Shown here one piece after another: positions 4,972 to 57,997 of a stretch of DNA of 64,000 nt. Origin of the DNA: Candidatus Nealsonbacteria bacterium (GTDB lineage Bacteria; Patescibacteriota; Minisyncoccia; Minisyncoccales; RBG-13-36-15); contig DRFQ01000009.1 of the NCBI GenBank assembly GCA_011050465.1, positions 334-64,333 of the forward strand. Direction: 5' to 3'. Numbering within the stretch: position 1 is the first letter of the stretch; each line of letters starts with the position of its first letter. Below the pieces are notes generated by a model, which was not told the origin of the DNA, did no database searches, and saw only the letters and a list, made by a program, of their open reading frames with translations. A program made the position numbers and the translations under genes.

Positions 4972-5043
4972 CGCGCCGTGGAGAAACGGTTATCTCGCCT
5001 GTCTCATAAGCAGGAGCAGTAGGTTCAACTCCTACCGGCGCAA
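4972..5043 (+). tRNA. tRNA-Met (CAU), initiator-like
   Basis: A cloverleaf was folded by hand, with anticodon loop CTCATAA. C1xA72 mismatch and an A11:U24 pair are bacterial initiator hallmarks, but the three G:C pairs of the anticodon stem are absent. CCA is not encoded. Confidence 0.8.
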
Positions 5044-5095
5044 CAATATTGTAAAGCAAATTTGACCGATAACTATTTTGGTAGAATTGGAATTT

Positions 5096-5168
5096 GCCGG
5101 TGTAGCTCAGTGGTTAGAGCAGGGCCTTCATAAGGCCAAGGTCATAGGTTCAAATCCTGTCACCGGCA
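5096..5168 (+). tRNA. tRNA-Met (CAU), elongator type (Ile2/lysidine type not excluded)
   Basis: Acceptor GCCGGTG/CACCGGC, D arm GCTC-AGTGGTTA-GAGC, anticodon loop TTCATAA, T arm ATAGG-TTCAAAT-CCTGT. Confidence 0.85.
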
Positions 5169-5321
5169 TAACGCCGGGTTCGTCCCGTCATTCGACGAGG
5201 CGTCCAGTCGGATGGCTGGGCGAGTCCCACCCTCGGCATAAAATTCGAATAGACCCGTGGTGTAGCCCGTTCGGATACTACGGAGCAAGCACGTTTTTCT
5301 GTCAATTTCGTACCAAAATTT

Positions 5322-5397
5322 GGGCGCGTGGTGTAGCCTGGTTTAACGCGCTTCCCTGTCACGGAAGAGATCGCCGGTTCAAATCCGGTCGCGCCCG
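5322..5397 (+). tRNA. tRNA-Asp (GUC)
   Basis: Acceptor GGGCGCG/CGCGCCC, anticodon arm CTTCC-CTGTCAC-GGAAG, T arm GCCGG-TTCAAAT-CCGGT, discriminator G. Confidence 0.9.
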
Positions 5398-5434
5398 CAC
5401 TTCGACAAGCTCAGTGCAAGACAAAAATTCATCT

Positions 5435-17048: not shown

Positions 17049-17471
17049 ATGAAAAAAATAAAAGCCATCGTAAAGTTACAAATTCCTGCTGGCAAAGCTA
17101 CTCCAGCGCCTCCTGTCGGGCCGGCCCTGGCTCCACACGGTTTGAACATTTCTGAATTCTGTCAGAAGTTTAATGAATCCTCAAAGAATCAACAGGGATG
17201 GAAGTTGCCAGTTGAAATTACTGTTTACGAAGACAGAACCTATAATTTTGAGATAAAACAACCTCTGGCTTCCGAGCTTTTGAAGAAAGCAGCTGCTGTG
17301 GAGAAGGGATCGGGGGAACCCAATAAAAAAAAGGTAGGGAAGATTACTGAACTCCAACTGGAGGAAATTGCTAAGAAAAAAATGCCAGATCTGAATACAG
17401 ATGATCTTAAACAAGCCAAGAAGATTATTGAAGGCACCGCAAAAAATATGGGAATTGAAATAGAAAAGTAA
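17049..17471 (+). CDS. rplK: Ribosomal protein L11
   Basis: [26 protein letters not shown] is the L11 N-terminal signature. Confidence 0.95.
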
Positions 17472-17482
17472 CACCTCATACC

Positions 17483-18079
17483 ATGATTTTATCTGATTGT
17501 GATATCAAAAAATACATAAAAGAAGGAAGAATTAGAATTACCCCAAAACCTAATTTTCAAGACCAACTCGGCCCTTGTTCTTTAGATTTACGGCTAGGAA
17601 AGGTTTTCAAGACTTTCAAACGAGCTGAATTTCCTTTCATCGACCTAAAGGCAAAATTCCCTATTGAGAAAATAATGTTTGAGATTAGACCATCTCCGGG
17701 AAAACCATTGATTATGCAACCCGGGGATTTTATTATCGCTTCAACAGAAGAATCTATTGAAATTCCATCCGACTTAGTTGCTAGAATTGACGGCAGGTCA
17801 TCTCTGGGAAGATTGGGGATAGTTATTCATATCACTGCCGCCCGCTTTGACCCTGGCTGGAAAGGGAAAGCGGTAATTGAACTCGGTAACCTAGGCATTA
17901 TGCCGGTGGCTTTATATCCTGGAATGAGAATTTGCGCTATAACCTTTGAGACTCTTTCTAGTCCCGTTGAGGTGCCTTATTTAAAACAAAAGGATCACAA
18001 ATATGCTTACCAGAAATCTCCTCGTGCAAGCAGGCTAAATCAGGAAGAAGAATTCAAAAAAAAGAAAAAATCAATATAA
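17483..18079 (+). CDS. dcd: dCTP deaminase
   Basis: It aligns by eye along the whole length of E. coli Dcd: MILSDCDI..EGRI, LDLRLG, DGRSSLGRLGI, DPGWKG..IELGN with the catalytic Glu retained. Confidence 0.88.
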   Translation: MILSDCDIKKYIKEGRIRITPKPNFQDQLGPCSLDLRLGKVFKTFKRAEFPFIDLKAKFPIEKIMFEIRPSPGKPLIMQPGDFIIASTEESIEIPSDLVARIDGRSSLGRLGIVIHITAARFDPGWKGKAVIELGNLGIMPVALYPGMRICAITFETLSSPVEVPYLKQKDHKYAYQKSPRASRLNQEEEFKKKKKSI

Positions 18080-18160
18080 GCGATGTCACGGAGCGTGAAT
18101 CGCTTGAATTTCCGTCACTCGTCCCAGATGAAAATAAATTTTCACCCGTGGACATAAACT

Positions 18161-18856
18161 ATGGATAAGTGGAAAGACTTAAGGAAAAACTTGTTTCGGG
18201 CAGTAGAACCCAAGATTAAACTTGTTGCCATGACTCAACCGGTCGGTGAGTACAGGCATCTTTGTACTCCAGAAACTCTTCCTGCCTTTACAGCCAGGGC
18301 TTCTTATGAATCAAAAGGAACAAAAGAAGACGATATAAGGCTTAATAGAACCCTGATAAAGCTTGGCCACGACACTCCATTGCAAGCTGTCCAATTTGTT
18401 TTTTATTTTTCTGGGACAACCAAATCCCTACAGGCTCAGTGGACAAGACATAAAGTCGGAGTTGGCTGGACCTTTAGAAGTACTCGTTATATTTCGGCAG
18501 GTCAAAATTGTTTTGTTTATAATACTTATGATTACATAAATGAGGAAGAAAAAGTAAAAGAACTTTTGAAAATAGATGAAACAGTTGCCAAACAATCCAT
18601 TGATCTATATGAAAAAAAGAGAACCCTAGGGTCTACGAAACAAGATGCCAGAAAAATAATGCCAGTTTTTTGGGCAACTTCCTGTTATTTTTATGTTAAT
18701 GCCAGAGCTTTGCGTCATCTTTTTAAACTAAGACTGGACAAGGCTGCGGAATGGGAGATTAGAAGAATGGTCTCAATTCTTTTCGATATTTGCATGCAGT
18801 GGACACCTTCATTCTTCGAAGATTTTAAAGAATTAAGAAATAAATCAGAATTTTAG
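18161..18856 (+). CDS. ThyX-like (flavin-dependent thymidylate synthase family) protein, divergent copy 1
   Basis: The ThyX-motif region reads TRHKVGVGWTFRSTRY, compared with the consensus RHRxxSxxxxSxRY. Length about 230 aa. Confidence 0.55.
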   Translation: MDKWKDLRKNLFRAVEPKIKLVAMTQPVGEYRHLCTPETLPAFTARASYESKGTKEDDIRLNRTLIKLGHDTPLQAVQFVFYFSGTTKSLQAQWTRHKVGVGWTFRSTRYISAGQNCFVYNTYDYINEEEKVKELLKIDETVAKQSIDLYEKKRTLGSTKQDARKIMPVFWATSCYFYVNARALRHLFKLRLDKAAEWEIRRMVSILFDICMQWTPSFFEDFKELRNKSEF

Positions 18857-18871
18857 GCAATTCAACAAACT

Positions 18872-19411
18872 ATGATATTAGGGGTGGATAAATTATTAAA
18901 ATTAGTTAAGGAAAAAAAGTTGGTGGAAAATCTTTCAGAGAGAGAACTTAAAAGCCCCGAGGGGGCTGGTTTTGACTTAAGATTGGGAGAAATTTATGAA
19001 ATTTCAGGAAATGGATTTTTGGGCCGGGAAGAACGAAAGACGCCGAAAGCGGAGTTGTTGGCCAAATATAACCCTAAAAAGAAACAAAGCTTTATTTTTA
19101 AACCCGGTAAATATTATTTAATGAAGACTATTGAGAAAGTTAACACGCCAGGGAATATTTTAATTTTATTTAGACCAAGAACAACACTTTTCAGATCTGG
19201 ATTAATGCTTTTTACCGGCAATGTTTCGCCGGGCTATCAAGGAGAATTGACTTTTGGCATTGCTAATTTTAGTTCTTGTGAAATAAAAATTGAACTCGGG
19301 GCCCGAGTTGTTCACGCTATGTTTTATGAAGTGAGAGGAAAGACAAATTTATACCGGGGTCAGTGGCAGGGCGGCCGGGTCTCGACAAAGAAGAAAGAAA
19401 AACAGATATAG
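18872..19411 (+). CDS. Dcd/dUTPase-superfamily protein, divergent (dUTPase-like motif, no deaminase Glu)
   Basis: FDLRLGE, RTTLFRSGL and GNVSPGYQGELTFGIAN match the Dcd/Dut fold. The position of the Dcd catalytic Glu is Gly. Confidence 0.6.
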   Translation: MILGVDKLLKLVKEKKLVENLSERELKSPEGAGFDLRLGEIYEISGNGFLGREERKTPKAELLAKYNPKKKQSFIFKPGKYYLMKTIEKVNTPGNILILFRPRTTLFRSGLMLFTGNVSPGYQGELTFGIANFSSCEIKIELGARVVHAMFYEVRGKTNLYRGQWQGGRVSTKKKEKQI

Positions 19412-19441
19412 AAAAATTTGGAGATTTTTGTCTTCATACCT

Positions 19442-19470
19442 TTGACAAAAAACATGAGGGTTTATATTAT
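19442..19470 (+). promoter_or_regulatory. Sigma70-like promoter for the second thyX-like unit
   Basis: TTGACA (19442-19447), a 17-nt spacer, then TATTAT (19465-19470). The strong SD AAGGAGGG precedes ATG 19561. Confidence 0.5.
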
Positions 19471-19560
19471 ATAACCAGAGGAAAAGAATCAATAGAGGAG
19501 GTCTTTTCTTGAATTAAAGCTCTTTTATACGCCAAACTGGACCTCTGAAAGGAGGGTAAG

Positions 19561-20277
19561 ATGGAGATTCTTCAGAATGCGGGTTCTCACCGAATTTTAG
19601 CAATTATGGCGGGGTCAGCCGGAGAAAGTCCTCTTGAGTTAATTGAACTTGCCGGTCGAACCTCATATCAGTCCAGAAATAGGATAACCAAGGGATCTGC
19701 GACTAAGTTTGTACGGATGTTGCGAAAGATTGGCCATGAAAGCGTTCTTGAACATTCATCAATGACTGTCGAATTTAATAATGTCTCGAGGGGTTTTACC
19801 CACGAATTGGTGCGTCATCGATTGGTGGCTTACACCCAAGAGTCGACCCGCCGGGTGGACGAAAGTGATTTCGGGGTGGTTATTCCGCCGGATAGAGATC
19901 CCGATGAGAAATTGGTGACATTACAGATATTCGACCAGATAGGAGTAGTATCCATTCCTCATATATTTACTGTTTCTTTTGGTGAATGGATGAAATTAAA
20001 TGAACAGATGTACCGTGGTTTGAGGAAAGCAAGCTGGAAACCAGAAGATGCAAGACAAGTCTTGCCTATTGGCATAAAATCTCAAATCGTGGATACCTGT
20101 AATTTGAGGGAATGGCGGCATATCTTCAGGTTGAGATGTGCCAAGGATGCCCATTGGGAGATTAGACGAGTGATGGTTAATCTCTTGCGGGAAGTTCAAA
20201 AAAGAATACCGGTAATTTTCGATGATTTTGTTATCGCAAAAGATGGAAAAAGCGCCATACTGAGAGGAGGGGATTAA
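19561..20277 (+). CDS. thyX: ThyX-like flavin-dependent thymidylate synthase, copy 2
   Basis: RHRLVAYTQESTRRV is close to the ThyX motif but has Ala at the first Ser position. HWEIRR is shared with copy 1 (EWEIRR). Confidence 0.65.
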   Translation: MEILQNAGSHRILAIMAGSAGESPLELIELAGRTSYQSRNRITKGSATKFVRMLRKIGHESVLEHSSMTVEFNNVSRGFTHELVRHRLVAYTQESTRRVDESDFGVVIPPDRDPDEKLVTLQIFDQIGVVSIPHIFTVSFGEWMKLNEQMYRGLRKASWKPEDARQVLPIGIKSQIVDTCNLREWRHIFRLRCAKDAHWEIRRVMVNLLREVQKRIPVIFDDFVIAKDGKSAILRGGD

Positions 20278-20549
20278 TGGATACGTTTAAAGGCAGTCCC
20301 CAAGACACAGCTTTCCAGGAATGGTGTAATCGTTTAATAAGAAACAAGAGAATGATAGTAGCGGTTGCGACAGATGAGATTTCTTGCTATAAGGCCAGGA
20401 CAACTCTAAAAGAAGTATCTTCTTTTCAATTTTCTCATACCTTAGAAAACCTTAAGGAGGCAGTAGTTCATGTGACTACTTGCTGGGATCAGGGATGTAA
20501 GGTAATCTTTTCCCGATTTCTAGAAGGTAAGCAGTTGAAAGTCTCCTGA
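20277..20549 (+). CDS. Hypothetical protein (90 aa), translationally coupled to thyX copy 2
   Basis: TAATG overlap with the upstream gene. No recognisable motif. Confidence 0.4.
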   Translation: MDTFKGSPQDTAFQEWCNRLIRNKRMIVAVATDEISCYKARTTLKEVSSFQFSHTLENLKEAVVHVTTCWDQGCKVIFSRFLEGKQLKVS

Positions 20550-20565: not shown

Positions 20566-20605
20566 ACCCCGAACTGAGTTTTGCTCTGGTTTGGGGCTTT
20601 TTATT
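20566..20605 (+). terminator. Intrinsic terminator
   Basis: ccccgaac...ggtttgggg stem followed by CTTTTTATTTT. Confidence 0.5.
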
Positions 20606-20634
20606 TTCCTAAAATTTGTTAAGATAAAAAGAAG

Positions 20635-21039
20635 ATGAAAAAAGAGCTATTAATAGTTACAGCAGCGATAATTAAAAGGAGAGGAAGATATTTAATTACT
20701 CAAAGACTCGAAGGGAAACATCTGGCTAAAAAATGGGAATTCCCGGGTGGGGCCATAGAATTTGGAGAAGATCCTAAAAGATGCTTAAAAAGAGAAATTA
20801 AAGAAGAGATAGATATAAATATAAAAGTAGGAAAGTTTTTCGATTATTCTTCCTTTGTTTATGATGATCAAAGACATATAATATTATTGGCTTTTTTATG
20901 TGATTTCCTCTCGGGAAAGATAAAAAATTTCGTTATCAGAGATTATAAATGGATTACGCCCAAAGAGATGACTAATTATGATTTTTGTAAGGCCGACATA
21001 CCATTTATTAAAAAAATACAAAAACATGAACATTGCTAA
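20635..21039 (+). CDS. Nudix hydrolase (MutT/NudG-like)
   Basis: Nudix box GGAIEFGEDPKRCLKREIKEEIDI. Confidence 0.85.
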   Translation: MKKELLIVTAAIIKRRGRYLITQRLEGKHLAKKWEFPGGAIEFGEDPKRCLKREIKEEIDINIKVGKFFDYSSFVYDDQRHIILLAFLCDFLSGKIKNFVIRDYKWITPKEMTNYDFCKADIPFIKKIQKHEHC

Positions 21040-21682
21040 AATTATCGATCATACTAATATAAGGCCCGAGGCCACCGAAGAAGATATAAAGAAAACCTGC
21101 CAGGAAGCTAAAAAATATGGCTTTCGGGGAGTCTGTATTAATCCAGAATGGATAAAATTGGTCAGCGAAGAATTGAAAGGAACAGACATTAAGACCATTG
21201 TTTTGATTGATTCACCAATTGGTGATAGTCCGTATCCAGAAAGATTAAAAATTTGTCAAAAAGCTAAAACTGAGGGAGCTGATGAGTTGGATATCGTAAT
21301 TAATGTCCCCGCTGTAAAACACGAGAGATATGGCGAGATTTTAGAAGATTTGAAAGAAATTTCAAAAATTTTACCCACCAAAGTAATTATTGGTTCCGGG
21401 TATTTAACAGACCAAGAGATAAGAAAGGCTTCAGAAATTGTTAAAGAGGCGGGAGCTGTTTGCGTTAAAACTTCAACAGCTAAAGATCCTTTGGATCAGC
21501 TTGAATTAAAAGAAAAAGCAAAACACCTAAAAATAATGAGAGAGTCTGCTCCTGGCCTCGAAATTAAAGCTGCCGGAAACATTAGGAACCATCAAGACCT
21601 CAAAATGATGGTAGAAGCCGGCGCGGACATTATCGGAACAAGTTCGGGAATAGAGATTATTAGAGAAGCTAAAGAAGAATAA
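21026..21682 (+). CDS. deoC: Deoxyribose-phosphate aldolase
   Basis: IIDHTNIRPEAT, GVCINP, ADELDIVIN and CVKTSTA (Schiff-base Lys region). ATG 21026 (MNIAKIIDHT) is preferred over the track start 20978. Confidence 0.8.
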   Translation: MNIAKIIDHTNIRPEATEEDIKKTCQEAKKYGFRGVCINPEWIKLVSEELKGTDIKTIVLIDSPIGDSPYPERLKICQKAKTEGADELDIVINVPAVKHERYGEILEDLKEISKILPTKVIIGSGYLTDQEIRKASEIVKEAGAVCVKTSTAKDPLDQLELKEKAKHLKIMRESAPGLEIKAAGNIRNHQDLKMMVEAGADIIGTSSGIEIIREAKEE

Positions 21683-21684
21683 TT

Positions 21685-23235
21685 ATGACCTATACGCCAA
21701 TAGTTGGCCTGGAAATTCATGTTGAGCTGAAGACTCGATCAAAGATGTTTTGCGGTTGCGCGAATGATCAAAACGAAAAACATCCTAATAATAATATTTG
21801 CCCGATTTGCATGGGGCATCCCGGTACCCTGCCGGTGATTAACCGAGAAGCAGTTAGAAAAGTAATAAAAACAGGTCTTGCTTTACATTGCCAAATTTTA
21901 GAAAATTCTAAATTTGACCGGAAAAATTATTTTTATCCAGACTTACCCAAAGGATATCAAATTTCTCAATATAATCTTCCTCTTTGTAAAGAAGGCTATC
22001 TCCAAGTGACCCTAGGCAATTTCATCCCGCCCCGTTTACAAGAGGGGCGAGGCAGGCAATCGAAAGTCAGAATTAGAAGAATTCATTTAGAGGAAGATAC
22101 TGGAAAACTTTTACATCCAGAAGGCACTGATTATTCTTTGGTCGATTTTAATAGAGCTGGCATTCCTTTAATGGAATTGGTGACTGAACCCGATATAAGA
22201 TCAGCAAAAGAAGCCAGGAGGTTTTCAGAAGAATTGAGATTAATTTTAAGATATTTAGGAGTCTCTGATGTTAATATGGAAAAGGGGCAGATGAGAGTAG
22301 AAGTTAATTTAAGCCTACTCCCGGCCGAAAAAGCAAAACAAAGAATAAAAAGCGATAAAGAATTAGGAACAAAAGTAGAAATTAAAAATTTGAACTCATT
22401 TCGGGCAGTAGAAGGAGCCCTAAAGTATGAAACTAAGAGGCAGACTGAAGTTTTAGAATCTGGCAAGAAAGTTATTCAAGAAACGCGGGGTTGGTCCAAA
22501 AGCAGAGGAGTAACATTATCTCAGAGAGAGAAAGAGGAGGCTTATGATTACCGATATTTTCCAGAGCCCGACTTACCCCCTCTTCATATTACAGGGAAAG
22601 AAATTTCAGAGATTAAATCAGAGATTCCCGAGCTTCCTCAACAAAAAAGAGAAAGATTTGCCAAAGAATATAATTTGGACGAGAGAGATGTAGAAGTTTT
22701 TGTTCAAAACAAAGACCTTGGCGCATATTTTGAGAAAGTTATATCGGAACTTAAGGATTGGATAAAGTCGATAGAACTTAAAACCAAACTATCTGATAGA
22801 GAAATCAAGAGATTCGTTAAGTTAGCGGCAAATTATGTATTGACGGATCTTCAAAGGCTTTTAAAAAAGGCTTCGGTGGCGGGTGATGATTTTCCAATTA
22901 CCCCAGAGAATTTCGCTGAGTTTATAGCTTTGATTTATGAAGGAAAAATATCAAGCAAAATTGCCAAGCAGGTTCTTTTAGAAATGTTTAAAACAGGAGC
23001 CGATCCATCCCATATTATTAAAGAGAAAAAACTTAGCTTAATTACTGATGAATCAGAGATTGAGAAAATTATAAAAAACGTTTTAAATAAAAATCAGACG
23101 GCAATTAATGATTTCAAGGATGGCAAAGGAAACGCTTTACAATTTTTAGTTGGTCAGGTAATGCAGGAGACAAGGGGCCGGGCTAATCCCCAAACAGTAA
23201 AAGATATTTTAGAAAAAGAGTTGACAAAAACTTAA
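21685..23235 (+). CDS. gatB: Asp/Glu-tRNA amidotransferase subunit B
   Basis: GLEIHVELKT, CPICMGHPGTLP, IHLEEDTGK and a C-terminal YqeY-like tail. A GC-rich in-frame insert lies at about 22022-22060. Confidence 0.93.
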   Translation: MTYTPIVGLEIHVELKTRSKMFCGCANDQNEKHPNNNICPICMGHPGTLPVINREAVRKVIKTGLALHCQILENSKFDRKNYFYPDLPKGYQISQYNLPLCKEGYLQVTLGNFIPPRLQEGRGRQSKVRIRRIHLEEDTGKLLHPEGTDYSLVDFNRAGIPLMELVTEPDIRSAKEARRFSEELRLILRYLGVSDVNMEKGQMRVEVNLSLLPAEKAKQRIKSDKELGTKVEIKNLNSFRAVEGALKYETKRQTEVLESGKKVIQETRGWSKSRGVTLSQREKEEAYDYRYFPEPDLPPLHITGKEISEIKSEIPELPQQKRERFAKEYNLDERDVEVFVQNKDLGAYFEKVISELKDWIKSIELKTKLSDREIKRFVKLAANYVLTDLQRLLKKASVAGDDFPITPENFAEFIALIYEGKISSKIAKQVLLEMFKTGADPSHIIKEKKLSLITDESEIEKIIKNVLNKNQTAINDFKDGKGNALQFLVGQVMQETRGRANPQTVKDILEKELTKT

Positions 23236-51359: not shown

Positions 51360-54300
51360 ATGGCTAAAATTGTTAAAAATAAATTAGGGAATTTTTTGGC
51401 GATTTGCCTTATCCTTTTGATGGTGGCGGGTTGGATTTTTTCTGGCTGGCCACAAGTGTGGCACGATCCTCCTTTTCCTCCAAAAGTTGAAGACGTACAT
51501 GCTACAACAAGAACAATTGAGCAGCAGATAAATATTATTGACCAGGAGTATGAGTCGGAGGTGCTGGGTTCTTATAAGCCAACCGATAATAGTCTTGGCC
51601 TGATCCGTTGGGATAGTGCCAAATATCCTGGCGCTGTGGTTTATTTTGAAGCAGTAGCAATGGTGTTTGCCGAGACCGATACTGTCAAGGTAGCTCTTTT
51701 TAGCTCTGACGGAACACAAGTTGCAAATAGTGAAGTAACCCATTCTAGCGCTGGTAATTATACAAGAGTAAGATCTAGCGCCCTTACTTTGGGTACGCTC
51801 CCCAATTTGCAGAGCAATACCGATTATTCTGTAAGGGTAAAAGCCGTGAATGATTGGGTTTCGCTCAAAGCCGCCCGCCTCATAATTGTCCAGTCCGACG
51901 GCACAAAAATTACAGATACCGTTACTCAAATTGAAGCTGGGGATAATCAGTCTACGACGGCAACCTCAGGAAGTCCGAGCACCCTTGCAAACCCAAATTA
52001 TTATATGTTTGACAAGGATATGTTTTCAGGAACATACGGGACAGACATTAACGCTTATTTTGAGGCGTCTCTTAAAGCTTCAGCAATACTCTCCGCTGCC
52101 GCTTATTATTTCAACGCCTACGACAGCGGTACCGCCTGGACCAACGCCCCAGCGCAGATGGTTGACGGTTCAACGAGCAACTTCGCGGTAACCGGCGGCT
52201 CCGATGAAAATCAACGCAACACCGCAAGCACGTGCGACGCCACATGCGGTGCAAAAAGCGAGACAATCACAAAAGTGGAATTAAGAGTTTATGCTTGCCA
52301 AGATAACGCTGATAACGGATGGATTACCTTAACCCCGTATTTTTCCGGTTCATCGCAGGGAGACGGGCACACTTGGTCGGCGGTTCCCGACGGGAATAGC
52401 TGTGAAACCGGGGTTGCCGCCTGGAGCCCTTATTTTGACATTACAAGCGATACAAATGCTCCGGGCACTTGGGGATGGAGCGATGTAGAAAACCTTGATG
52501 TTAATGTGTTCGGTGACAGACAGGGAGGAGCCGATGTTATCCACGCGGCGCAAGTCGATATTCAAGTAACGTATGAACCGGGTACAACATCTACCGCATA
52601 CGCAGAGCTTTATAACCGCACCAATAGCGCAGTAGTTGGTAATAGTACTATTTCTGTGAATAGCACTAGTTGGACGCGAGTTCGTGGCGCAAGTGCTTTG
52701 AACTCGTCAGACAACTGGGATATAACCAATGATGATGAATATGAAGTGCGCATTTATTCTTCAAGCGGTTCTGACGCCGCCTATATTGCTAATGCTAAAA
52801 TTGTTATTGAACAGAGTATTTCAGGGGGTATAGATAAACTGGAGACGGTGCATCAGTATAATAATACGTTGGTAAGTCTCGGAGGTGATGTGGTAACTGT
52901 TTATGCTCAATTAACTATTTCAGGAGGTGCTGCCATCTCTGGTAGTAAGCAAAGTACTGGTAGTGGCAGTTATACGCGGTTGAGAAGCAGTGGTTTAACA
53001 TTATCTACTAATGATTTTGATGTTGAGTTAAGCGTGAACGATTCAGCATATACGGAACAAGGATTTATGAACAAATATGATTCTACTAATTGGGTGGGTG
53101 GAACTTTTGTATATTTATTTGAAACAATACTTAAAAATGTTGTTACAGTTAGAGAGGACTCCTCAACTTCCTGGCTTATCATTCAGATATCTGGGCTTGC
53201 TTCTATTATCGCAACTACTACCATTGGTGATGGTACTGACCCCAGTGATTCAACGGTTGCACCGGAAAGCGGGATTACTGATCTTGATGCAGTCACTTTC
53301 GTTACCAACACCGGCACTGATTCCATTACTGCCGTAACCGTTACTCTTGGGGCAGGTGATTCAGATAATTTGAGCGAGGTGCGGATTACAAACGATAATG
53401 GATTAACGACATATTTTTCCGCAATTTCCAGTCCCTCAAGTGACACACTCAATTTTAGCGGTGGCACACCAATACCGGTTACAGCTTCATCAACGCAGTT
53501 TAAGGTCAGAATCACTCCAGAAACTCACGCCAACATGCCAGCTCCCCAGGGAGCAGAATATGCTATAACCGGAACCATTACCGCTTTTACCAGTACCAAC
53601 ACCCAGGCAGGAACAGATACCGGCAGTGCCATGATAACCATTGACAACTTATCGCCCAATAACGCCACATCCACAAGTGGTAGTGTTACTTCAGATACTG
53701 AAATAACAATCAACTGGACGACTTCCAACAGTACCGATTACAATCGCTCAATCGTACTGCGGTGGCAAGCCTCCCTTCCTGGGGCCGATGTGCCAGCAGA
53801 AGGTACTAATTATAGTCTTGATGATACCATTGGCGGAGCAAAGGTGGCTTGTGTAGAGAATACCGGTACTTCTTCTACGGCCTACAGCGGGGTTGATGGT
53901 TCTGGTGCAGATGAGTGTAGCACTACCGCTTTGTCTGTCGGTACGCAATATTCATATAAACATTTTGAGAAGGATGATAACGGAAACTGGAATACAGGAT
54001 TTACGAACGCCAGCTCTCCTTTAACGACAACCGGCGGCGCAACTTTAACCTTTAGTATTTCCGACAACGATATATTCTTTGGTGATTTGAGCGCTTCGGC
54101 GTCTAAATGGGCAGATAATACCGCAGACGGAAGCACTACAGCAGTGGTTGCCCATACGCTCGCCGCCTCAACAAACGTCACCAACGGATACACCATAACC
54201 GTAAACGGAACCACGCTTACTTCGGGTGGTGATACCATTATTGCCATGGCTTCTGAAGCTATTCTTACCACCGGGCAAGAAGAGTTTGGTCTGCGCATTA

Positions 54301-54527
54301 CGGCTTCTGGCGGAAACGGTACGGTTGATGCTGATTATGACAATAGTCCAGCTGACAGCTATGCCCTCATTACTGGTAACTTTCCGGATGTGATTGCAAC
54401 AGACGCAGACGGCGATGACGTGAGCACCACATATTCGCTCTACTATGCAGCAAACATTACCGCAAACACCGAGGCCCACACCGACTACACTTCCAGCCTA
54501 ACCTACGTTGCAACCGGAAACTTTTAG
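51360..54527 (+). CDS. Large (1055 aa) Thr/Ser/Asn/Gly-rich cell-surface protein with N-terminal membrane anchor, internal repeats, FN3-like module and a C-terminal domain shared with the next gene
   Basis: TM helix LAICLILLMVAGWIF. A motif repeated three times (YTRVRSSALTL / WTRVRGASAL / YTRLRSSGLTL). ITINWTT...YSYKHF is FN3-like. The last 190 aa or so are paralogous to 54678-55817. It is GC-richer than the core genes. Confidence 0.7.
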   Translation: MAKIVKNKLGNFLAICLILLMVAGWIFSGWPQVWHDPPFPPKVEDVHATTRTIEQQINIIDQEYESEVLGSYKPTDNSLGLIRWDSAKYPGAVVYFEAVAMVFAETDTVKVALFSSDGTQVANSEVTHSSAGNYTRVRSSALTLGTLPNLQSNTDYSVRVKAVNDWVSLKAARLIIVQSDGTKITDTVTQIEAGDNQSTTATSGSPSTLANPNYYMFDKDMFSGTYGTDINAYFEASLKASAILSAAAYYFNAYDSGTAWTNAPAQMVDGSTSNFAVTGGSDENQRNTASTCDATCGAKSETITKVELRVYACQDNADNGWITLTPYFSGSSQGDGHTWSAVPDGNSCETGVAAWSPYFDITSDTNAPGTWGWSDVENLDVNVFGDRQGGADVIHAAQVDIQVTYEPGTTSTAYAELYNRTNSAVVGNSTISVNSTSWTRVRGASALNSSDNWDITNDDEYEVRIYSSSGSDAAYIANAKIVIEQSISGGIDKLETVHQYNNTLVSLGGDVVTVYAQLTISGGAAISGSKQSTGSGSYTRLRSSGLTLSTNDFDVELSVNDSAYTEQGFMNKYDSTNWVGGTFVYLFETILKNVVTVREDSSTSWLIIQISGLASIIATTTIGDGTDPSDSTVAPESGITDLDAVTFVTNTGTDSITAVTVTLGAGDSDNLSEVRITNDNGLTTYFSAISSPSSDTLNFSGGTPIPVTASSTQFKVRITPETHANMPAPQGAEYAITGTITAFTSTNTQAGTDTGSAMITIDNLSPNNATSTSGSVTSDTEITINWTTSNSTDYNRSIVLRWQASLPGADVPAEGTNYSLDDTIGGAKVACVENTGTSSTAYSGVDGSGADECSTTALSVGTQYSYKHFEKDDNGNWNTGFTNASSPLTTTGGATLTFSISDNDIFFGDLSASASKWADNTADGSTTAVVAHTLAASTNVTNGYTITVNGTTLTSGGDTIIAMASEAILTTGQEEFGLRITASGGNGTVDADYDNSPADSYALITGNFPDVIATDADGDDVSTTYSLYYAANITANTEAHTDYTSSLTYVATGNF

Positions 54528-54677
54528 TTTATAGGTTTTCCACAACCAGCTTATTGATGTTGTTGCTTGATACTGGTATTCTGTTATAATAAATAAAAAC
54601 CATAAAAAGGTTACGTTTCGTATCAGCCAATATAACTATTCCTTTCCCTTGGTCGATAAGGAATACAAAAACTGCCA

Positions 54678-55817
54678 ATGAACCAACTATATTTTATAAG
54701 AAGAAACATAGATATAAAAAAAGTCCTTACCAGCTTGGGGCTTATTGTCGCAGTGCTGGTGTTGTTGATAGCGCCGCCCGTGCAGATTGCAAGGGCAGCT
54801 ACCTTGCTGAACATGAGAGACACTCTCACTACCGTGAAGGCAAGTACCGTAACTGACCATGAGATTATATTCCGCACGCCAACGGGAGCTGATGAGTCCA
54901 CAGACACCATCATCATTGACATTGGAGCTACCGATACCTCGTGGAATACCAGCAGCTTAGCGATTGGTGACGTGGATTTGGCGCACTCAGCCGGTGCCCA
55001 GAGCGACTGCGACGCTCCAACATTCAGCAACGAGGAGACACTTGCAGCTTCCGCTACCGCCACCGATTGGCAACTGGACTTTGACACCACAAACGATATC
55101 CTTACCTTCACTGCCCCAACAGACGGCGTGGGAGCCGCTGCTATTGCAACTAACGCCTGTGTGCAGATACAGATTGGTACCAATGCTAGTGGAGGATCAA
55201 ACCAGATTACCAACAGCACTGCGGGCAGCAAGAATATAGACATTTTGGGTACCTTTAACGACACCGGTACCATAGTGGTAACGCTCATAGCTGACGATAT
55301 AGTAGTGACAACTGCCACGGTCGTTGCTTCTCTAACGTTTACCGTTGATGATAATGATATCTTTTTTGGCACCTTGGGCGCTGGGGCAGCAAAATGGGCA
55401 GATAATACCGCAGACGGAAGCACTTCGTCAGTCGTTGGCCACACCATGACCGTAGGTACCAACAGTACATCCGGCTACAGTGTTACTTACAACGGTACCG
55501 CGCTCACGTCTGGTTCAGATAAAATTTCCGATAGCGGCAACACCACCATTACCGGAGATGCGGACGGAACTCCCGGCTCAGAGGAGTTTGCCATTGGGGT
55601 TACCGTGAGCGACAACGCGACTATTGCTTCTGGATATGAGCAGGCCTCCAACAACTTCAAGTTTGTTGAAAGCACCACTGCCACACTTGTCTCTGAAACT
55701 ATTCAAACCGCCGCAGAAACAATCTCTGTCTACTACATAACCAACATTGCCGCAAACACCGAGGCCCACATCGACTACACTTCCAACATAACCTACATTG
55801 CAACCGGGAACTTCTAG
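54678..55817 (+). CDS. Secreted surface/fibre-subunit-like protein, paralogous C-terminal domain
   Basis: Signal peptide ending IARA-ATLL. The C-terminal domain (DNDIFFG..KWADNTADGST...TEAHIDYTSNITYIATGNF) aligns with the C-terminus of the 1055-aa protein. Confidence 0.7.
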   Translation: MNQLYFIRRNIDIKKVLTSLGLIVAVLVLLIAPPVQIARAATLLNMRDTLTTVKASTVTDHEIIFRTPTGADESTDTIIIDIGATDTSWNTSSLAIGDVDLAHSAGAQSDCDAPTFSNEETLAASATATDWQLDFDTTNDILTFTAPTDGVGAAAIATNACVQIQIGTNASGGSNQITNSTAGSKNIDILGTFNDTGTIVVTLIADDIVVTTATVVASLTFTVDDNDIFFGTLGAGAAKWADNTADGSTSSVVGHTMTVGTNSTSGYSVTYNGTALTSGSDKISDSGNTTITGDADGTPGSEEFAIGVTVSDNATIASGYEQASNNFKFVESTTATLVSETIQTAAETISVYYITNIAANTEAHIDYTSNITYIATGNF

Positions 55818-55861
55818 GAGCTCTCTTGCTCGATGCCGTGCTGGCGTGATAGCATAACATC

Positions 55862-56959
55862 ATGAAATTTTGGGTACTCATTGGCTTTTTTTTGGCTATT
55901 GGGGTAATGCTTTTACCTCAAGGAGCACAGGCTCTCACCGTTTCCCCGGTGCGGGTGGAACTTGCTGCCGACCCCGGAGCAAACGTGAAAGGCGTGATTT
56001 TGCTTATTAATGAACAGGAAGGAACCAGAACTTTTTATTCTTCTCTTGAAAATTTTGAAGCTCTGGGAGAAACAGGCACACCAACATTTATTGAAAGCGC
56101 AGAAGGACTGGCAACGTGGATTGAAACTGCTTCTCAAGTAACCATAGAGCAAGGAGAGAAAAAAGAAGTTCCCTACACCATTATAGTACCCCAGGACGCT
56201 GACCCCGGAGGCCACTTTGCAGCCATTTTCTGGAGCACTTCTCCTCCCCGAGCAGAAGAGGAAGGAGGGGTTTCTATTGGGGTTAAACTCGGTGTTCTCA
56301 TATTGCTCCGCGTAAGCGGAGAAATAGAAGAGGAAGGAGGACTTCTAGAATTTAACGCTCAAGATAAACAAAGCTTTTTCAGTTCGTTACCCATAACGCT
56401 TACCTACCGTTTTCAAAACGGTGGGGGTGACCGCGTGAAGCCAGAGGGAGAGATAACGATAAAGAATATATTTGGCAGAATCTCAGCTGTTCTCCCAGCA
56501 AACGAATCTGAGGGAAATGTATTGCCCCAGTCTATTCGGAAGTTTCAGGTGACCTGGGATATAACCCAGAAGGAGGGCGAGCTCAATACGAGGCAGGCAC
56601 AAAAGGATGATGAGAAAGTTGGATTTTTTGGAGCAGTCAAAAGACAATGGAGCGATTTTCATTTTGGTAGATATACTACTCAGCTAAACTTAAATTATGG
56701 GGCGGAAAATGAAAAAGCTGAAGCTGGCTTCAGCTTTTTTGTTATTCCCTGGCAGCTTCTGAGTATTATACTTTTTGTGGTGATGGTTGTTGGTCTTCTT
56801 AGTAAAATAGCAATAAAGAGATATAACCAATGGATTATCGCAAGGGCCGTACAGATGCAAGTACCTAAAGAAATCAACACAACCAAAGCGAGGAAGAAAA
56901 TAAAAACAAACCTTCGTAAAAACAAAAGAAGCCAAGTAAAACGAAGTATTAAAAGATGA
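55862..56959 (+). CDS. Signal-peptide protein with two beta-sandwich-like halves, a C-terminal TM helix and a basic tail (DUF916/DUF3324-like, chaperone-like)
   Basis: AQA-LTVSPVRVEL start, PGGHFAAIFW, then a C-terminal TM helix (LLSIILFVVMVVGLL) and a K/R-rich tail. The architecture resembles CscA-type partners of WxL proteins. This is an inference. Confidence 0.55.
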   Translation: MKFWVLIGFFLAIGVMLLPQGAQALTVSPVRVELAADPGANVKGVILLINEQEGTRTFYSSLENFEALGETGTPTFIESAEGLATWIETASQVTIEQGEKKEVPYTIIVPQDADPGGHFAAIFWSTSPPRAEEEGGVSIGVKLGVLILLRVSGEIEEEGGLLEFNAQDKQSFFSSLPITLTYRFQNGGGDRVKPEGEITIKNIFGRISAVLPANESEGNVLPQSIRKFQVTWDITQKEGELNTRQAQKDDEKVGFFGAVKRQWSDFHFGRYTTQLNLNYGAENEKAEAGFSFFVIPWQLLSIILFVVMVVGLLSKIAIKRYNQWIIARAVQMQVPKEINTTKARKKIKTNLRKNKRSQVKRSIKR

Positions 56960-57997
56960 ATGAAGCCTTTTATCAATTACTTTTTATCGCTAATAATTAT
57001 TCTCATTTTCTTAGGTGTAACATCTTTTTTCCATATTCACGCTGCTGAAGAAACTGTTACTATTTCAGCCACCGTAGAAGATTGCGGTAATGACGTTAAA
57101 GGAGGAGATGAACAATGCGATGGCTCTGATTTAAATGGGGAAACTTGTGTGAGCCGTGGTTTTACTGGTGGCACTTTAAGTTGTAACGATAATTGTACTT
57201 TTAATACTTTTGGTTGTAGCTCAGGCGGAGGAGGTGGCGGAGGAGCCTATATTCCGCCTCCGCCGCAAACTGCAGTAAATTTTAGTGGTAGGGCCTATCC
57301 ACTAAGCAAAGTTACCGTTTTAAAGGACGGCCAAGTAGCAATAACCACCATAGCAGGTCCTGATGCAAATTTTTATATTTCATTATCCGGTTTGTCTTCC
57401 GGTAATTATATATTTTCGGTTTATGGTGAGGATAATAAACAAAGACGCTCTAGTTTATTTACATTTCCAGTATTTGTTACCAGAGGTGCCATTACAACTA
57501 TCAGTGGTATTTTTCTTGCACCCACAATTGATGTTGATAAAAGCGAAGTGAAGCGAGGCGACAATATCGCTATTTTCGGGCAGAGCGCGCCTCAAGGCGA
57601 AATTACTATTTCTATTAATTCAGAAGAGGAAATTTTTGTAAAAACTAATACTGATGCAGACGGTATTTATTTATATAATTTCGACACTAGTCCATTAGCG
57701 ATAAGACAACATCTTACCAAATCAAAAGTTGCTGCAGATGGGATTATTAGTTCTTTTAGTAAAACGGTAACTTTTAATGTTGGAACCAAGACAGTTTTCA
57801 AAGAAAAACCAGAATTTTTAAAAGGCGATTTGAATAATGACGGTAGAGTAAACCTTGTTGATTTTTCTATTGCGGCCTATTGGTATAAACGGTCGATCAG
57901 CGCTGAATTTGCCCGAAAGGAAGCCGAGAGGTTAAATAACGACGGCAAAATTGATTTAGTGGATTTTAGTATTATGGCATTTTATTGGACAGGATAA
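56960..57997 (+). CDS. Secreted protein with Cys-rich module, poly-Gly/Pro linker, Ig-like region and C-terminal dockerin-like repeats
   Basis: CGNDVKGGDEQCDGSDLNGETC...C..NC.F..C; GGGGGGGAYIPPPP; GDLNNDGRVNLVDFSI and LNNDGKIDLVDFSI (two EF-hand-like dockerin segments, about 57818-57994). Confidence 0.65.
   Translation: MKPFINYFLSLIIILIFLGVTSFFHIHAAEETVTISATVEDCGNDVKGGDEQCDGSDLNGETCVSRGFTGGTLSCNDNCTFNTFGCSSGGGGGGGAYIPPPPQTAVNFSGRAYPLSKVTVLKDGQVAITTIAGPDANFYISLSGLSSGNYIFSVYGEDNKQRRSSLFTFPVFVTRGAITTISGIFLAPTIDVDKSEVKRGDNIAIFGQSAPQGEITISINSEEEIFVKTNTDADGIYLYNFDTSPLAIRQHLTKSKVAADGIISSFSKTVTFNVGTKTVFKEKPEFLKGDLNNDGRVNLVDFSIAAYWYKRSISAEFARKEAERLNNDGKIDLVDFSIMAFYWTG

Follow-up and report, generated by a model that had tools for sequence, protein, structure and literature searches.

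A probable deoxythymidylate-supply locus with two divergent ThyX genes and a Dcd-fold, dUTPase-like protein in a Nealsonbacteria-like Parcubacteria chromosome

In the E. coli-type route to deoxythymidylate (dTMP), a deoxycytidine triphosphate (dCTP) deaminase (Dcd), a dUTPase (Dut) and a thymidylate synthase act in succession. The locus described here comprises five open reading frames (ORFs) at positions 17483-20549 of a 64-kb stretch of DNA from Candidatus Nealsonbacteria bacterium (assembly GCA_011050465.1, contig DRFQ01000009.1); this whole stretch is called the window, and all coordinates are positions in it. The ORFs encode a Dcd, a flavin-dependent thymidylate synthase (ThyX-1), a Dcd-fold, dUTPase-like protein (DcdL), a second ThyX (ThyX-2) and a 90-aa protein (orf90). 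The locus shares with the E. coli-type route its logic and a canonical Dcd, and relatives cluster the successive-step genes with tmk; it differs in that the synthase is ThyX instead of ThyA and is present twice, and in that a Dcd-fold protein, not the classical trimeric Dut, would carry out the dUTPase step. M. tuberculosis and Corynebacterium, which carry thyA and thyX, provide a precedent for two thymidylate synthases in one genome, whereas here both are ThyX and belong to different subfamilies. In Streptomyces, PolB is a second ThyX paralogue that methylates uridylate (UMP) and deoxyuridylate (dUMP) in polyoxin biosynthesis (PMC5954106). The present genome likewise has two thyX genes, one of them possibly specialised, but in contrast to PolB no antibiotic gene cluster accompanies them and both copies lie in the dTMP cassette. 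Our literature search found no paper on ThyX in Patescibacteria and none on a second thyX outside Streptomyces. We consider it rather likely that the region is a single dTMP-supply locus of a Nealsonbacteria-like Parcubacteria chromosome, with old, divergent ThyX paralogues and no modified-base pathway.

Pfam and NCBIfam assign the five ORFs, in order, to Dcd, ThyX, the DCD/dUTPase fold (under both curated cut-offs), ThyX and no family. It is proposed that Dcd would convert dCTP to deoxyuridine triphosphate (dUTP), as its homology and full set of catalytic residues indicate. It scores 189.3 bits against TIGR02274 (cut-off 92.8), aligns with E. coli Dcd (1xs1, E 3e-42) through RSSLGRLG…FDPGW…IELGN, and conserves Ser111, Arg115, Asp128 and Glu138 of the E. 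coli enzyme, in agreement with an earlier note on this DNA that had called it a canonical Dcd with the catalytic Glu in IELGN. It scores higher with E. coli Dcd (147 bits) than with the Dcd:Dut of M. tuberculosis (127) or of M. jannaschii (93). DcdL, a branch of the archaeal Dcd-like dUTPases specific to the candidate phyla radiation (CPR) and DPANN archaea, may then cleave dUTP to dUMP and pyrophosphate, an uncertain step to which its fold, nearest characterised relatives and gene context point. ThyX-1, presumably co-transcribed with dcd and dcdL, would convert dUMP to dTMP, given its conserved catalytic residues and the housekeeping contexts of its relatives; ThyX-2 probably catalyzes the same reaction, since its residues are conserved and its type is the sole synthase gene seen in some cassettes. 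The NUDIX and DeoC proteins encoded in the same slot would fit deoxynucleoside triphosphate (dNTP) sanitation and deoxyribose salvage. The pathway so assembled is one of ordinary dTMP supply, in which each gene belongs to a known superfamily and no new DNA modification is revealed. From the altered active sites the earlier note had suggested, as one of two options, a phage-like modified-pyrimidine pathway, a reading that is not supported: the rplK-gatB slot that the genes occupy is chromosomal and syntenic in many Patescibacteria, each protein groups with a large CPR/DPANN family whose members serve in the dTMP cassettes of relatives, both ThyX keep the uracil-activating Arg, the deviant motifs characterise whole subfamilies and are not peculiar to this genome, and no modification gene (5-hydroxymethyluracil kinase, glycosyl- or aminotransferase, aGPT-Pplase) lies nearby, the neighbours being NUDIX, DeoC and GatB. 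Both Dcd-ThyX pairs of that note cluster with housekeeping orthologues, although some canonical catalytic residues are indeed changed.

Several findings weigh against this proposal. DcdL stays below the cut-offs of the two nearest curated families, with 75.7 against 130 for the archaeal dUTPase family PRK02253 (NF002598) and 75.4 against 92.8 for TIGR02274 Dcd, and it has Ser119 at the position of the motif-III Asp (E. coli Dut Asp90, Dcd Asp128), which is Asp in five of five aligned solved structures. Loss of this Asp nearly abolishes the activity of canonical Dut, the D83N enzyme of M. tuberculosis having a relative efficiency of 0.0002 (PMC5519681), and dUTPase activity can therefore only be inferred for DcdL. 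A search of the 64-kb window found no canonical dut, tmk or thyA. The ThyX-1 motif RHKVGVGWTFRSTRY reads RHK-X8-S and not RHR-X7-S, and HMMER aligns it with a one-residue gap in T. maritima ThyX. ThyX-2 has Arg98 where T. maritima has Tyr91 and M. tuberculosis Tyr108, a residue termed strictly conserved, whose Y91A substitution slows carbinolamine consumption more than 100-fold (PMC8316439, PMC11940539). Relatives of ThyX-2 that share this Arg, about 70% identical, sit on contigs resembling mobile elements, and the guanine-plus-cytosine (GC) content of thyX2 (0.437) is higher than that of the neighbouring genes (0.36-0.40). Finally, there is no evident reason for a streamlined genome to keep a second synthase.

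The DcdL protein deserves the closest attention. Its AlphaFold2 model (mean predicted local distance difference test score 82.7) matched Dcd:Dut enzymes and archaeal Dcd-like dUTPases (4xjc, 2qlp, 2zdc, 8y1w and 9ln0) in Foldseek (probability 1.0, E ~1e-10, template modelling score 0.65-0.75), and DcdL is accordingly predicted to adopt the Dcd/Dut beta-barrel fold, in which the active site lies at the trimer interface. Among solved structures, sequence comparison places it nearest to the archaeal dUTPases 9ln0 (P45), 8y1w (T. pacificus), 9w59 and 2yzj. With the archaeal Dcd-like dUTPases (P. furiosus P45 9ln0, T. pacificus 8y1w, S. tokodaii 2zdc and 9w59) DcdL shares this fold and the motifs PR(S/T)(S/T)…R…G, G-x-R and Y-R-G-x-(Y/W)-Q, and with 9w59 also an N-terminal helix and an ERK-x-P loop. 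Like them it is without the deaminase Glu, having Gly129 at that position. All solved members of that group have Asp in (D)(P/A)G(W/Y/F), where DcdL has Ser, and DcdL differs from them in its distribution, being found in CPR bacteria and DPANN archaea. The Gly at the deaminase Glu and the Ser at the Dut/Dcd Asp, both pointed out by the earlier note for this 179-aa protein, were recovered in pairwise and family-profile alignments to the five solved structures. Our literature search found no paper on Asp-less Dcd-like dUTPases.

Of the proteins of the locus, DcdL is the one that recurs across CPR bacteria and DPANN archaea. The family is large, with 4818 homologues detected, and the genomes of 41 GTDB species, belonging to Parcubacteria, Microgenomates, Woesearchaeota and Micrarchaeota, were found to encode it; in 31 of these 41 loci dcd, dCMP deaminase, tmk, thyA, thyX or the dihydrofolate reductase (DHFR) gene lies within 2.5 kb. 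Bit-score ratios to the relative L001 are 0.84 for DcdL, 0.80 for L11, 0.84 for NusG and 0.65 for Dcd, so that the conservation of DcdL matches that of L11 and NusG. Automatic annotation labels the protein 'dCTP deaminase' or 'hypothetical', and a comparison with 50,697 GenBank phage records gave no close homologue, the best being distant Dcd-like genes of tailed phages (35% identity). Across phyla 37 positions are invariant, including the Dut-like motif I G31-A-G33-F-D35-L-R37, the series PR103-T-T105…R108-S-G110, G121-Y122-x-G124, N132 and G143-x-R145, the C-terminal arm Y161-R-G-Q-W-Q-G-G-R169…E176-x-Q178 and a family-specific N-terminal motif K13…E25…P29-E30; motifs I (AGFDL), II (PRTT) and IV (G143-x-R145) and the sugar-stacking Tyr122 are all conserved.

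Against these 37 invariant positions the motif-III Asp position is variable (S/A/N/D/P/H). Together with the scores below the curated dUTPase and Dcd cut-offs, the family's own invariant N- and C-terminal motifs and its presence in cassettes with a dCMP deaminase, where a dUTP intermediate is not required, this variability would suit a protein that is no dUTPase, being instead a nucleotide-binding regulator or an enzyme of a different pyrimidine dNTP reaction, with dUMP coming from a bifunctional Dcd or from dCMP deaminase. We regard this alternative, which concerns one step only and is compatible with the proposed explanation for the rest of the locus, as somewhat unlikely: Dut motifs I (AGFDL), II (PR[ST]T) and IV (G-x-R), Tyr122 and the ordered C-terminal arm motif are kept, some archaeal family members still have the Asp, and sanitising of the dUTP pool is needed by any dUMP route. 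We infer that DcdL may carry out the dUTP-to-dUMP step of these organisms because the cassettes lack this step alone and neither they nor the window showed another dUTPase candidate. DcdL may have a compensating residue or a different function. A bolder proposal, which we judge unlikely, makes DcdL a new functional type in the dUTPase/Dcd superfamily that performs either Asp-independent dUTP hydrolysis, in which water would be activated by the invariant E25, E30 or E88 or the nearly invariant E141, or another pyrimidine dNTP reaction; alongside, the Tyr91-to-Arg ThyX, here coupled to orf90, could have an altered product or one-carbon chemistry. What makes DcdL the part of the locus most worth following up is that a large, strongly conserved, CPR/DPANN-restricted and uncharacterised family has neither the catalytic residues of Dcd nor those of Dut. 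Should DcdL be these organisms' dUTPase, the Asp mechanism of the textbooks does not hold universally; should it be something else, they make or sanitise dUMP in an unknown way. The natural Tyr91-to-Arg ThyX variants come second.

ThyX-1 scores 116.6 bits against TIGR02170 (cut-off 87.9) and keeps the residues equivalent to T. maritima H53, Q75, R78, H79, S88, R90, Y91, R147, N163, R165 and R174. Relative to T. maritima ThyX (TM0449) it has a one-residue insertion, a conserved IG-x-GW segment between RHR and Ser88, Lys at R80 (Arg in many family members), a non-acidic residue at Glu86 and Ala at H178. The earlier note was right to record the extra residue and the K for R in its signature, and both recur in the subfamily signature RH[RK]IG[VI]GW[TS][FY]RSTR[YF…], in which the insertion is conserved and K and R alternate. 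Members of this subfamily come from Patescibacteria, DPANN archaea and some metagenome-assembled genomes labelled Deltaproteobacteria or Thermodesulfobacteriota. Two archaeal genes of this type are found in housekeeping dNTP contexts, one (L068) beside the genes for serine hydroxymethyltransferase, NrdD/NrdG and dCMP deaminase and the other (L067) beside those for thioredoxin, a DCD-family protein and a class II ribonucleotide reductase. In the flanks fetched for relatives, 6-8 kb on each side, the ThyX-1 type is the sole ThyX/ThyA gene of the dTMP cassettes L002 and L005/L006. Comparison of ThyX-1 with the GenBank phage records gave no close homologue (best 28% identity). The position equivalent to Tyr91 is Tyr, Phe, His, Asn or Thr within the subfamily (P0121-P0240), so that natural enzymes depend on this Tyr less strictly than published accounts suggest.

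ThyX-2 scores 126.1 bits against TIGR02170 (cut-off 87.9) and belongs to a type that is common in Parcubacteria, with about 5300 homologues detected. It aligns over its full length with M. tuberculosis ThyX (E 1e-29, 106.6 bits; 28.6 bits with PDB 4p5a, which we take to be PolB), with which it shares the motif RHR-X7-S-x-R and from which it differs by Arg at Tyr108 and Asp at His203. Like ThyX-1, it retains the uracil-activating Arg (T. maritima R174). Its motif RHRLVAYTQESTRRV is present as reported earlier and retains the canonical RHR-X7-S (RHRLVAYTQES). The Ala at the 'first Ser', offered by the earlier note as a catalytic deviation, is none, since Ser and Ala alternate freely at that position among 120 close relatives. 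The original definition of the ThyX motif, RHRX7S, does not include this Ser. The oddity had been misplaced; the actual deviation, overlooked there, is the Arg at the Tyr91 position, where 13 of the 120 relatives have Arg and one has His. Compared with 106 Tyr-type relatives at positions at least 85% conserved, ThyX-2 differs only by Y98R, K112R and a 7-aa insert, and it appears from these alignments to be an intact enzyme with one pointed substitution that has arisen at least twice. In a neighbour-joining tree, ThyX-2 and P0243, both with Arg, nest among Tyr-type chromosomal copies, that of L007 included, and a second, separate Arg clade contains P0281 and P0305, on contigs resembling mobile elements or viruses. 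The best viral match of ThyX-2, among IMG/VR contigs, is 58% identical (the GenBank phage records were not searched for ThyX-2). A fresh import of thyX2 from a phage was rejected as the main explanation, because the gene nests with chromosomal copies from the same slot and its IMG/VR relatives are at most 58% identical.

The contigs of P0305 (L048:1-14717) and P0281 (L050:1-9562) are virus- or plasmid-like, with many small unannotated ORFs. Their genes include PCNA, MCM_N, ParB_N, an SPL-like radical-SAM, an ERCC3/RAD25-type helicase, a PAPS-reductase-like protein and another radical-SAM; the presence of PCNA and MCM suggests an archaeal (DPANN?) host. Directly 3' of thyX both contigs have a common small ORF (…FILLYPDLHDG.LCEER…).

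Loss of the carbinolamine hydroxyl has been proposed to rely on Tyr91 as general acid (PMC8316439, PMC11940539), and the replacement of this Tyr by Arg is one reason to consider that a ThyX, most plausibly ThyX-2 with Arg98 together with orf90, is neofunctionalised and acts on another nucleotide (UMP, CMP or dCMP) or makes a C5 product such as 5-hydroxymethyl-dUMP for a modified-base or secondary-metabolite route. PolB is a precedent for this with two thyX genes in one genome (PMC5954106); the change from Tyr to Arg occurred independently in at least two clades and that from Tyr to His once, which looks like selection and not decay; the remaining conserved positions of ThyX-2 are all kept; the thyX2-orf90 pairing is conserved in two genomes; and Arg-variant relatives sit on contigs resembling mobile elements or viruses. 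We nevertheless hold a new function to be highly unlikely. ThyX-2 retains the uracil-activating Arg, the phosphate-binding Arg residues and Ser88, Tyr-type and Arg-type copies share the same tmk-thyX2 context, and the surroundings contain no kinase, glycosyltransferase, aGPT-Pplase or further modification gene. Moreover, the Tyr91 position is Y/F/H/N/T in ThyX-1 family proteins that appear to be sole synthases, and orf90 is found behind a Tyr-type copy too and not behind another copy of the Arg type. That Tyr91 and RHRX7S are both broken in abundant natural subfamilies bears on the proposed general-acid role of Tyr91 and on ThyX inhibitor design.

The orf90 product, which the earlier note correctly described as coupled to ThyX-2, matches no family in Pfam, NCBIfam or the PHROGs. 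Relatives are rare: 1.8 billion cluster representatives yielded about eight short proteins of 85-95 aa, and IMG/VR and the JGI metagenome contigs none. The alignment has invariant G6, I35, C37, A40, H65, C69 and C74, and the pattern C37…H65…C69…C74 could bind a metal; the AlphaFold2 model is a four-helix protein, for which Foldseek gave no match in the PDB at E <= 0.001. A role for orf90 as a redox or metal-binding accessory is speculation. One homologue (P0363, 47% identical) begins directly after thyX2 at the contig end in L007, and the thyX2-orf90 pair is therefore conserved in two genomes. As the ThyX-2 of L007 is of the Tyr type and the Arg-type P0243 is not followed by orf90, the gene is not tied to the Arg variant. 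The idea that orf90 recurs as a partner of ThyX was rejected: in L002, L005, L048 and L050 thyX is followed by small ORFs unrelated to it, and a true homologue stands behind thyX2 in L007 only. A small Cys-rich ORF (MKGQCFTCMY…SCCSVHGE…), also unrelated to orf90, occurs in two other Parcubacteria cassettes, after thyX1 (L002:8714-8992) or before dcdL (L008, 84 aa, between dCMP deaminase and dcdL).

In bacteria rplK is usually followed by rplA-rplJ-rplL-rpoB; here a dTMP cassette follows instead. The content of the rplK-gatB slot varies between quite close relatives, and the slot looks like a recombination hot spot. In Ca. Nealsonbacteria RBG_13_36_15 (L007), the closest named relative of the locus, the order is dcd, thyX1, dcdL, tmk, thyX2 and the start of the orf90 homologue; in the closest long contigs (L005/L006, ThyX-1 83% identical) it is dcd, thyX1, dcdL, an unrelated 88-aa ORF, nudix and deoC. 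Other relatives have dcd, thyA, DHFR, dcdL and tmk (L001/L047), dCMP deaminase, a thyX1-type gene, an unrelated 92-aa ORF and dcdL (L002), or dCMP deaminase, tmk, a thyX2-type gene and deoC (L003). Within the flanks fetched, ThyX-1-type, ThyX-2-type and ThyA genes are each the sole thymidylate synthase gene in some relative's cassette, and the window and L007 keep two in the slot. The Tyr-type and Arg-type copies of ThyX-2 occur in the same tmk-thyX2 context. With its swappable dTMP modules, the rplK-gatB slot clearly illustrates how non-orthologous replacement proceeds naturally in minimal genomes. Patescibacteria are reported to have received thyA by horizontal transfer (PMC12455944).

The exchange of thymidylate synthase genes in Patescibacteria (PMC12455944) also lends itself to another explanation, namely that thyX2-orf90 is a spare or decaying cassette, laterally acquired or left over and heading for loss, and that ThyX-1 does the work. 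When the DNA of the window is aligned with that of L005, the flanks are conserved and the 88-aa ORF stands in place of thyX2 and orf90, so that the closest long relative has an unrelated gene at exactly that place; thyX2 differs from the surrounding DNA in GC content (0.437 against ~0.37), has its own promoter-like site and has lost the critical Tyr. A decaying gene is, however, hard to reconcile with an intact frame, a strong Shine-Dalgarno sequence (SD), coupling to a conserved partner and only Y98R, K112R and one insert at the conserved positions; the two-ThyX arrangement kept in Ca. Nealsonbacteria RBG_13_36_15 and the nesting of thyX2 in a chromosomal clade and not among viral copies also speak against this explanation. 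We therefore rate this explanation as distinctly unlikely. In the dTMP-supply reading, the ancestor probably had dcd-thyX1-dcdL-tmk-thyX2-orf90, as in L007; tmk would have been lost from the slot in the genome described here, and thyX2 is absent in the sister lineage L005/L006. The simplest account of the two synthases would be retention from such an L007-like ancestor in a slot with frequent swaps of thymidylate modules. It is from this history that the two ThyX are taken to be old, divergent paralogues, and they may provide redundant or differently regulated dTMP synthesis. The redundancy or acquired spare set that the earlier note had offered as its other option comes closer than the modified-pyrimidine pathway, for ThyX only; Dcd and DcdL would perform complementary steps and are not duplicates.

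The window (mean GC 0.378) is a low-GC chromosome segment of an ultra-small Patescibacteria bacterium, with the gene order gyrB, secE, nusG, rplK, the five ORFs, a NUDIX gene, deoC, gatB and, on the other strand, miaA (Table 1). The five ORFs are all real, co-directional and placed as previously described. Their grouping into two tandem Dcd-ThyX pairs did not survive: the promoter-like site falls inside the supposed second pair, between dcdL and thyX2, and identity is 21% between Dcd and DcdL and 27% between ThyX-1 and ThyX-2, values that also rule out a recent tandem duplication. The promoter-like site, SD and higher GC that had been ascribed to the second pair are true of thyX2, whereas dcdL (GC 0.376) lies upstream of the promoter site. 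Given this site and the 15-nt distance of dcdL from thyX1, the natural units are [dcd-thyX1-dcdL] and [thyX2-orf90]; they look like a transcription unit behind rplK, probably read through from the secE-nusG-rplK operon, and a second one with its own promoter-like site and SD, which may be separately regulated. Promoter-like sites are no more numerous in the region than in shuffled sequence. Over the whole window Rfam matched four tRNAs and nothing else, which leaves the region without a riboswitch or leader. GCA_011049515.1 (contig DRHR01000036.1) and marine-sediment assemblies of separate runs contain the locus without a single base difference; with four independent assemblies identical, the arrangement is no assembly artefact and a chimera is ruled out.

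Table 1. Features of the rplK-gatB slot in the window.
Feature	Position	Strand	Basis and remarks
rplK (ribosomal protein L11)	17049..17471	+	Ribosomal_L11 Pfam families on identical locus L061; upstream anchor of slot
dcd, dCTP deaminase, 198 aa	17483..18079	+	TIGR02274; begins 11 nt past rplK stop codon
thyX-1, flavin-dependent thymidylate synthase, 231 aa	18161..18856	+	TIGR02170; CPR/DPANN subfamily
dcdL, Dcd-fold dUTPase-like protein, 179 aa	18872..19411	+	Profile alignment, AlphaFold2/Foldseek; begins 15 nt past thyX-1
Sigma-70-like promoter site TTGACA-17-TATTAT, 11/12 match	19442..19470	+	Consensus match only; in 149-nt spacer ahead of thyX-2
Shine-Dalgarno AGGAGG	19550..19555	+	Read from sequence; 5 nt ahead of thyX-2 ATG
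thyX-2, flavin-dependent thymidylate synthase, 238 aa	19561..20277	+	TIGR02170; M. tuberculosis-like type common in Parcubacteria
orf90, 90 aa, no family	20277..20549	+	Overlaps thyX-2 stop codon (TAATG); translationally coupled
Terminator-like hairpin and T-run	20583..20607	+	3' of orf90; flanking sequence conserved in L005
NUDIX hydrolase, MutT / pyrimidine-dNTP-diphosphatase-like	20635..21039	+	TIGR00586 91.1 against 97.9 and PRK10546 (NudG) 84 against 156, both under cut-off
deoC, deoxyribose-phosphate aldolase	20978..21682	+	TIGR00126 171.5 against 117.3; true start may be 21026, as called on identical contig
gatB	21685..23235	+	Gene call; downstream anchor of slot

The NUDIX protein could be a further pyrimidine-dNTP pyrophosphatase of the locus and hence offer an alternative route to dUMP or dCMP. 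Elsewhere in the window, two tRNA-Met genes and one tRNA-Asp gene lie within about 430 nt at 4972-5398, on which ARAGORN and Rfam agree. The stretch 51360-56959 has a GC content of 0.44-0.51 and large ORFs of 1055, 379 and 365 aa, none of them matching Pfam; the ORF next to it (56960-57997) has weak Big_6 and Dockerin matches, and the two together may be a laterally acquired surface-protein region.

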